64,000 nt of DNA, taken from assembly GCF_024223415.1 (NCBI RefSeq), contig NZ_CP100500.1; one strand, given 5' to 3'. Under the pieces are notes generated by a model, which was not told where the DNA came from, ran no database searches, and saw only the letters and a program-made list of their open reading frames with translations. Within the stretch, counting starts at the first letter, position 1; each line of letters starts with the position of its first letter. Positions 15,333 through 15,760 of this stretch are shown piece by piece. The position numbers and the translations under genes are program-made. This DNA is from Escherichia coli. Lineage in GTDB: Bacteria; Pseudomonadota; Gammaproteobacteria; Enterobacterales; Enterobacteriaceae.

Positions 15333-15614
15333 TGCTATCAATTTCCTGCCTGTTTATACCCGGCCATTGCAAGGTGAAACCCTGGCTACCGACGTCTTTA
15401 GATAAATCTTACGGTATAAATAGCACTTTTGCCTGATTTGAAATTGATACCTTTTTAATCGTCACCTGGATGAAAATAATTCATTGATATTCAAAATTAA
15501 TTTTCTACAGGAATACAGAGGCTGCGGGAAGATATACCCTTAATGCCACTGAAAAACCACATAATCTGTACAGCAATAAAAGTCACGACCTAATCTGGCT
15601 AACAAACAATCAAT

Positions 15615-15630
15615 TGTGATATAGTTCACA
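15615..15630. promoter_or_regulatory. Candidate CRP site (TGTGATATAGTTCACA) in the pdeC/yjcB divergent region
   Basis: Both half-sites match the CRP consensus TGTGA-N6-TCACA exactly. Confidence 0.5.
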
Positions 15631-15760
15631 AAATTAATGAAACAAACAGAGTGTTTCATTTTTGTGTTCTGCAAGCCCCGCGATAGCCAGAGTGTACCAC
15701 GCCTCCCGTGAACAACGCCGCGCTGTCCAGGGCATCGGCTCTTTTCAGAGGAATTGTTTG

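Follow-up and report, generated by a model that had tools for sequence, protein, structure and literature searches.

A CRP operator overlapping the yjcB promoter and a KdgR-type inverted repeat in the yjcB leader of Escherichia coli and its relatives

Why does a consensus operator for the cyclic AMP (cAMP)–CRP complex stand just before a T-tailed inverted repeat in the intergenic region between the divergent genes pdeC and yjcB of Escherichia coli, where no plus-strand gene ends? This locus was analyzed in a 64,000-nucleotide stretch of the E. coli contig NZ_CP100500.1 (assembly GCF_024223415.1), hereafter the window. A previous sequence-only reading had taken the repeat for a terminator-like hairpin, possibly an attenuator or the 3' end of a small RNA. 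The best model, held here with modest confidence, is that a sigma-70 extended −10 element lies inside the CRP site and that the KdgR-type operator after it has its canonical form in most Enterobacteriaceae and an altered spacing in Escherichia. The interval 15595–15660 would form the regulatory core of the yjcB promoter (Table 1).

The CRP operator and the overlapping promoter

The palindrome TGTGATATAGTTCACA (TGTGA-TATAGT-TCACA) agrees with the half-sites of TGTGA-N6-TCACA at 10 of 10 positions, exactly as the sequence-only reading had it, and is the sole match to this pattern on both strands of the 64 kb, where 0.03 would be expected and 3 of 100 shuffled sequences contained one. For comparison, 80 yjcB loci were collected from Enterobacteriaceae, one genome per species (Escherichia, Salmonella, Citrobacter, Enterobacter, Klebsiella, Raoultella, Kosakonia, Phytobacter, Lelliottia, Leclercia and others). 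Of these loci, 78, from more than 20 genera, have a CRP palindrome 64–148 nt before the ATG, with no more than one half-site mismatch (the first T changed to C). When the 78 loci are aligned on the palindrome, variation is confined to position 1 (T in 81%) and the third spacer base (kept in 91%), the other 14 of its 16 positions being invariant; the flanking intergenic columns show 30–50% identity. The site had already been predicted by PhyloScan in 2007, ranking 2nd to 16th in the top-20 cross-species lists (PMC1794230). Judged from its consensus match and family-wide conservation upstream of yjcB, from that prediction and from the change of yjcB mRNA in a crp deletion (see below), the CRP site is real, as previously proposed, and deeply conserved; it is not new.

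In E. coli O166:H15 JNE21-003, the position equivalent to window 15624 is altered so that TATAGT reads TATATT, leaving the palindrome intact and the hexamer still −10-like. A second CRP site downstream of the repeat was considered and rejected, as E. coli has a poor TGTGT half-site only and the position in Salmonella is inconsistent.

Between the CRP site and the yjcB ATG, the window is identical to MG1655 without indels, so that MG1655 coordinates can be transferred (the MG1655 yjcB ATG at 4275041, minus strand, is window 15761). The primary yjcB transcription start site (TSS) determined by differential RNA sequencing (dRNA-seq), which has a step height among the largest (PMC12987492), falls 8 nt past the TATAGT hexamer. 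This TATAAT-like hexamer is preceded by TGn and has the proper distance to the mapped TSS, i.e., it has the features of an extended −10 element. Shimada 2014 assigned the promoter CTAACA-15-TATAGT to yjcB under a peak obtained by systematic evolution of ligands by exponential enrichment (SELEX) with RpoD holoenzyme (PMC3946193). Two independent published data sets, RpoD-holoenzyme SELEX and the dRNA-seq TSS, agree with the extended −10 reading. A promoter consensus scan found no further sigma-70 match near the repeat.

CRP constrains the sequence of its own spacer little. As TATAGT is conserved despite being non-palindromic, a second, strand-specific function is suggested; this conservation would be unexpected from CRP alone and fits a −10 hexamer. 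RNA polymerase with sigma-70 would read the extended −10 element and initiate at A15633. The −10 hexamer is the 6-bp CRP spacer itself, and cAMP–CRP bound there would cover both the −10 and the extended −10, exclude polymerase and repress yjcB.

In a crp deletion at pH 5.5, yjcB reaches 474 transcripts per million compared with 156 in the wild type (log2 fold change 1.6), and quantitative PCR detected an increase in the deletion at both pH 7.5 and pH 5.5 (PMC13339887). Given the centre of the site at −10.5 and this roughly 3-fold increase, CRP is likely a repressor of yjcB, and the identity of the CRP spacer with the −10 hexamer, overlooked in the sequence-only reading, likewise points to a repressor, not an activator: CRP centred at −10.5 could only hinder polymerase. 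CRP probably represses yjcB by occluding the −10 element.

The pdeC ATG is about 290 bp from the centre of the CRP site, which is on the upstream side of pdeC. A divergent class II promoter towards pdeC was rejected because no conserved −10 is found at the needed distance.

Immediately upstream of the CRP site, a block at 15595..15614 is nearly as conserved as the site itself, with CTGG at 94–100% and the A-runs above 90% in the 78 loci. It fits no marbox, sigma-54 element or good −35; TGGCTA within it could be a weak −35-like element, the spacer then being 18 bp. Readings of the conserved blocks as sigma-54, sigma-E, PhoP, OmpR, Cra, PurR or TyrR sites were dismissed by eye, as spacing or core bases do not fit. 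In E. coli OkiPb01679, a 4-bp deletion lies between this block and the CRP site.

The inverted repeat at the start of the yjcB transcript

The repeat consists of ATGAAACA, AACAGAG and TGTTTCAT at 15637..15659 (+5..+27), and one more A–T pair extends the stem to 9 bp at 15636..15660, i.e., +4..+28 of the yjcB mRNA. The sequence-only reading had located it correctly and had rightly seen no plus-strand gene end here (the 5' side of pdeC, on the minus strand, ends at 15332 and yjcB, on the plus strand, starts at 15761), but its TTTTTG tail needs correction: TTTT is followed by G, and five T are obtained only with the last stem base. Rather than a terminator, the repeat is a conserved operator-like element that falls within the first ~30 transcribed bases of yjcB.

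The IclR-family regulator KdgR was taken to recognize the box AATRAAAYR-N-YRTTTYATT, a presumed consensus which was then validated on E. coli boxes. It is matched at 16/18 positions in kdgK, at 17/18 in kdgT and at 18/18 and 16/18 in the two sites of kduI, and no other site of at least 16 occurs in 126 kb. Both arms of the E. coli yjcB repeat, AATGAAACA and TGTTTCATT, are 9/9 KdgR half-sites. Read as an operator with a 1-nt centre, the E. coli yjcB sequence falls short at 14/18, its perfect halves being 7 nt apart.

In most genera, the leader reads AATGAAACA-GAAACA-N-TGTTTCATT or a variant of this. A second left half-site thereby stands 1 nt from the right arm and creates a canonical KdgR box (RAAAYR-N-YRTTTYATT). 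At the fixed offset +10..+28, a score of 15/18 or more is reached in 52 of 79 yjcB loci and one of 16/18 or more in 29; outside this offset, the same loci contain 5 sites that reach 15 among 389,000 positions. These sequences yield the strong prediction that yjcB is controlled by KdgR in Salmonella, Citrobacter, Klebsiella, Raoultella and many Enterobacter.

In Escherichia, the inner left half-site is degraded and the canonical 19-mer scores 12–14/18. Across six Escherichia lineages, both arms are invariant and 5 of the 7 loop positions vary. Among 5,426 complete E. coli genomes, a 71-bp core shows 95% identity or more in 5,420 and 99% or more in 3,764, and the surrounding 501 bp reaches at least 99% identity in just 359 records. 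To judge from these patterns, the outer arms in Escherichia are still under some constraint.

The repeat at +4..+28 would serve as a DNA operator, and a repressor bound to it would prevent initiation or stop polymerase early in elongation. In Escherichia, the copy of the left half-site that adjoins the right arm would have decayed, with the remaining perfect halves separated by 7 nt rather than 1; what E. coli retains would be a re-spaced, probably weakened descendant of a KdgR operator that a protein might still bind. More tentatively, and rather less likely than not, yjcB might be an unrecognized member of the KdgR regulon (perhaps also of the CytR regulon) throughout the Enterobacteriaceae, with a three-layer promoter whose consensus CRP site is at the same time the −10 element and whose repressor box spans +10..+28. 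If so, the KdgR box would have been split in Escherichia and its perfect arms kept for another role, as an mRNA 5' hairpin or a CytR site; the change of function of an operator could then be traced before the gene of a strongly stress-induced small membrane protein.

The MG1655 kdgT KdgR box AATAAAACAGCGTTTCAAT is flanked by two CRP-like sites, TGTGATCAATTTCAAA and TGTGGTTTTGATCACT, at distances of 39.5 bp and 20.5 bp from the centre of the box, and kduI site 2 has a tandem GAAAAC-GAAACA left half, similar to the duplicated left half-site of yjcB leaders.

Several points weigh against the model of CRP occlusion combined with a KdgR-type operator. The effect of the crp deletion on yjcB is just ~3-fold and could be indirect, and the TSS comes from a single published table of antibiotic-treated cultures. 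Strong upregulation of yjcB at pH 4.4 alongside the CRP-activated glpD and azuC makes it plain that CRP repression is not the dominant control. The accessible literature gave no report of CRP, KdgR or CytR occupancy at the site; yjcB is unmentioned in the portion of the Crp ChIP-exo supplement text that was accessible and was not found in the accessible portion of the CRPBSFinder supplement. The score of 14/18 of the E. coli 19-mer is seen 15 times in the 126-kb background, and a KdgR dimer should not be able to span half-sites separated by 7 nt. Conservation of the outer left arm goes further than the 19-bp KdgR box requires, which implies an additional constraint. Open-access text contained no yjcB–KdgR or yjcB–CytR link.

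Alternative readings of the repeat and the CRP site

Two alternatives place the function of the repeat in RNA. Its reading as an intrinsic terminator, either an attenuator or the 3' end of a ~30-nt small RNA, is largely refuted and must be considered very improbable. A perfect 8–9-bp stem followed by UUUU(G) is indeed rare by chance (0.13 per shuffled window for a perfect 8-bp inverted repeat with a T-rich tail), and on the minus strand the repeat likewise has a U-rich tail, but the repeat is an outlier among the ~10 such hairpins in the window: with 2 G–C pairs and 28% G+C, its folding free energy is −6.4 to −6.9 kcal/mol, compared with −14 to −16 kcal/mol and 46–73% G+C for the gene-end terminators. 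In its 41-nt context, it folds no better than shuffled sequences (z = −1.08), a terminator scan of the window did not report it, and by the TSS this weak A/U-rich stem lies inside the yjcB mRNA. The U-run is absent outside Escherichia, other genera having GTTTCATTCATG, GTTTCATTCCAG and similar sequences. A scan of 15000–16500 against Rfam with E up to 10 returned chance-level eukaryotic snoRNA and lncRNA matches only (E of 1 or more). The transcript 3' end proposed at about 15664 is likewise missing from the Term-seq tables of Adams et al. 2021, which list no minus-strand 3' end at MG1655 42751xx and the ssb terminator as the sole entry near yjcB, for conditions with low yjcB expression and libraries that lose very short RNAs (PMC7815308). 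Alternatively, a 5'-terminal stem-loop at +4..+28, preceded by 3–4 unpaired nucleotides, might shield the mRNA from 5'-end-dependent decay or compete with pairing of the start-codon region; we regard this as unlikely. It is consistent with the presence of the hairpin in minimum free energy (MFE) folds of the full leader of Escherichia, Salmonella, Klebsiella, Raoultella and Kosakonia, with the invariant stem and variable loop of the six Escherichia lineages, with G–U wobbles and with G–C pairs that lengthen the stem in some Kosakonia. GUUUCAU recurs at the start codon in many genera and pairs with the 5' arm in some folds, and the rise at pH 4.4 is larger by Ribo-seq than by RNA-seq (log2 fold change 7.7 and 5.9, respectively). 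Double changes exist at the outermost pair, to which all both-sided changes are confined (6 cells in 77 distinct sequences). However, RNAalifold assigned 0 pairs and no consensus structure to these 77 sequences; 89% of the cells of the outer helix pair, reflecting sequence conservation, the central pair is broken in 35/77 (45%) with no compensating change, and the inner helix GAAAC-N3-GTTTC shows no covariation. The stability resembles that of shuffled sequences (z = −1.1), and the invariance of the right arm is typical of a sequence-specific site. A DNA-level operator is favoured, because the arm sequence is invariant, variation is tolerated at one specific position and compensation is absent.

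Two further alternatives retain a DNA-binding protein at the repeat. CytR, the sole LacI-family protein that tolerates variable half-site spacing, would recognize the outer arms AATGAAAC and GTTTCATT as octamers and bind cooperatively with the adjacent CRP dimer, the complex covering −21..+28; this is possible but given a low probability. The CytR consensus is AATGYAAC / GTTRCATT, and co-binding with CRP selects inverted repeats about one helical turn apart, a CRP operator lying within 5 nt and the half-site spacer being under 5 nt or about one helical turn; the cytR promoter, with a single CRP site, and nupG, with a 9-bp spacer, are precedents (PMC3454398). The yjcB arms match at 7/8 each and, in agreement with these geometry rules, the repeat begins after a gap of 5 nt from the CRP 16-mer and has a 9-nt spacer (9–11 in other genera); AATGNAAC-N8-13-GTTNCATT occurs once in the window where 0 are expected. 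The left arm varies freely at one position (A/T/C), which corresponds to the degenerate Y of the consensus, and ATGTAAC and ATGCAAC, both in accord with this Y, are found in ~40 species. Natural E. coli half-sites themselves match the octamer at only 6–7/8, and the arrangement at ycdZ is comparable (CRP, 4 nt, octamer, 12 nt, octamer). In contrast, all natural half-sites found keep a GCA core (TGCAA/TTGCA), which the E. coli yjcB arms lack, the right arm has an off-consensus T at the R position in 77/77 sequences, and the genome-wide screen of Sernova and Gelfand gave ycdZ as the only new member (PMC3454398). The conservation can be accounted for with no need of CytR by the canonical KdgR geometry that the inner repeat has in most genera. 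The other alternative turns the role of CRP around: CRP would activate a class II promoter starting near 15664, being centred at −41.5, and the repeat would be a repressor operator over the −10 region, which is the usual CRP-plus-KdgR logic of 2-keto-3-deoxygluconate (KDG) and pectin genes. The CRP-like sites flanking the kdgT box, the co-induction of yjcB with CRP-activated genes at pH 4.4 and the position of the repeat, which would cover −22..−4 of such a promoter, speak for it. Nevertheless, it is quite improbable: 15650–15662 offers no acceptable −10 (in the best candidates, TTTCAT and TTCATT, the second position is not the key A), the promoter scan gave no match near 15664 and the published TSS is 15633. 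Also, yjcB goes up, not down, in the crp deletion, and the invariance of the CRP spacer would be left unexplained. Overall, a repressor operator or its remnant is the favoured interpretation of the repeat; as sources of the residual constraint on the outer arms, a CytR site, an mRNA 5' stem-loop and a weak residual KdgR site would look alike to computation.

The start-codon context in many genera reads GTTTCATG, which contains the same heptamer as the right-arm GTTTCAT; in E. coli (15756..15763) it reads GTTTGATG. In MFE folds of two loci, the start region takes the place of the right arm as the partner of the 5' arm. Pairing of the 5' arm with the start-codon region GTTTCATG was set aside, as it shows no covariation with the variable arm position. 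An upstream open reading frame (ORF) from ATG 15637 (+5 of the mRNA; 15637..15711, 24 codons in E. coli) was also rejected, as it is not conserved; this position reads ATG-TAA, a start followed by a stop, in many genera, the Citrobacter freundii group and Enterobacter among them.

The locus and its likeness to known systems

The gene order is soxR (−), soxS (+), pdeC (−), a 428-bp intergenic region, yjcB (+), an additional 158-amino-acid ORF, ssb (−) and uvrA (+), and the region 15300–15800 has 100% identity to E. coli strain S51. Coordinates of the features are collected in Table 1.

Table 1. Features of the pdeC–yjcB region in window coordinates; signed positions are relative to the yjcB TSS (CDS, coding sequence)
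Feature	Position	Strand	Remarks
pdeC (yjcC) CDS	13746..15332	−	Divergent neighbour; RefSeq annotation of the identical S51 locus
MarA site GCAATAAAAGTCACG	15573..15587	+	Chosen by MEME under the yjcB<>yjcC ChIP-seq peak; non-canonical; located in H10407 and mapped to the window
Conserved block CTGGCTAACAAACAATCAAT	15595..15614	+	−38..−19; family consensus CTGGyGAAyAAAnnAnCAAA (78 loci)
Consensus cAMP–CRP operator TGTGATATAGTTCACA	15615..15630		Centre 15622.5, −10.5
Extended −10 element TGaTATAGT, sigma-70 yjcB promoter	15617..15625	+	Inside the CRP site; hexamer 15620–15625
yjcB transcription start (A)	15633	+	dRNA-seq primary TSS, MG1655 4275169(−)
Left arm AATGAAACA	15636..15644	+	+4..+12; KdgR left half-site AATRAAAYR 9/9; CytR AATGYAAC 7/8
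Spacer/loop AACAGAG	15645..15651	+	Differs among Escherichia lineages
Right arm TGTTTCATT	15652..15660	+	+20..+28; KdgR right half-site YRTTTYATT 9/9; GTTTC invariant in 77 sequences
T-run TTTTG after the repeat	15660..15664	+	Escherichia only
yjcB translation initiation region	15747..15763	+	AGAGGAA Shine-Dalgarno, GTTTG, ATG
yjcB CDS	15761..16042	+	93 amino acids; Pfam PF15940; small inner-membrane protein of unknown function

Other regulators have been connected with yjcB. A MarA chromatin immunoprecipitation sequencing (ChIP-seq) peak is reported for yjcB<>yjcC, with a MEME site in Table 1 of that study (PMC5684230); the coordinate tabulated there, 4737238 in H10407, does not match the actual location at 4737357–4737371. 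No canonical mar/sox/rob box with at most 3 mismatches is present in 15560–15700, and the window shows no enrichment of the degenerate marbox consensus. SoxS ChIP-exo likewise has yjcB as a target, and the gene is associated with H-NS. It ranks with the most strongly induced genes under severe acid stress, antibiotics and multiple other stresses. Elsewhere in the window, a perfect 19/19 match to the mar/sox/rob box consensus, ATAGCACGATTAATTAAAT, lies at 56148..56166 on the minus strand and adjoins a G+C-rich terminator hairpin (56112–56136) and a sequence resembling repetitive extragenic palindromic (REP) elements. This box is downstream of a 551-amino-acid ORF (56312–57967, minus strand), which we take to be pgi by its size and map position.

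The 158-amino-acid hypothetical ORF between yjcB and ssb (16313..16789, plus strand; WP_001121509.1 in S51) is absent from MG1655; its product gave 0 Pfam matches and a sub-threshold PADLOC match to PbeC (E = 0.0057). The yjcB–ssb interval is an integration hotspot and defence-island locus (PMC11728103). In enterotoxigenic E. coli H10407 (NC_017633.1 4737100–4737700), pdeC is annotated as a pseudogene with an internal stop. An E. coli-type yjcB locus of 99% identity, with the CRP site and the hairpin, is also present on the contig NZ_JAUFQN010000013.1 of Flavobacterium paronense CECT 8460 by its label, probably through contamination of that assembly.

Overall, this is ordinary promoter architecture with known kinds of regulation, and no general principle is changed. 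The yjcB promoter illustrates in compact form how the same bases can hold both a transcription-factor site and a −10 element, and the combination of CRP occlusion with a KdgR-type operator would give testable handles on the timing of yjcB expression, namely cAMP and KDG or hexuronates.

Like Rho-independent terminators and attenuators, the repeat is a stem-loop followed by a short U-run, but it has two G–C pairs and less than half the stability of the local terminators, its U-run is not conserved, its 3' end is unmapped and no alternative anti-terminator structure was identified. The ompA leader carries a 5'-terminal stabilizing stem-loop, and the yjcB hairpin similarly lies 3–4 nt from the mRNA 5' end; unlike that of ompA, the yjcB stem is weak, A/U-rich, without covariation and mismatched in nearly half of the species. 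The CytR cassettes of cytR, nupG, ycdZ, udp and deoP2 share with yjcB an octamer-like inverted repeat within 5 nt of a strong CRP site and a spacer of about one helical turn, the lone CRP site being matched at cytR and the 9-bp spacer at nupG, whereas the yjcB arms are without the TGCAA/TTGCA core and the cassette would cover the core promoter (direct repression) rather than lie upstream (anti-activation).

With the KdgR operators of kdgK, kdgT and kduI, the likeness is that the arms AATGAAACA and TGTTTCATT equal the consensus half-sites and that the leaders of Salmonella, Citrobacter, Klebsiella, Raoultella and many Enterobacter score 15–17/18 with a 1-nt centre, on a par with the genuine boxes of E. 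coli. In contrast to those operators, 7 nt separate the Escherichia yjcB halves, there is an additional conserved left half-site 6 nt upstream, and yjcB has no known link to KDG metabolism. For the CRP site, promoters repressed by cAMP–CRP through overlap with core elements are known, e.g., cyaA P2. As in promoters of this type, the yjcB CRP site lies over the −10/start region and expression rises in a crp deletion; the difference is that at yjcB the −10 hexamer is the CRP spacer itself, so that the two signals are fully superimposed, in a composite that is conserved family-wide and at which CRP binding and occlusion are predicted.

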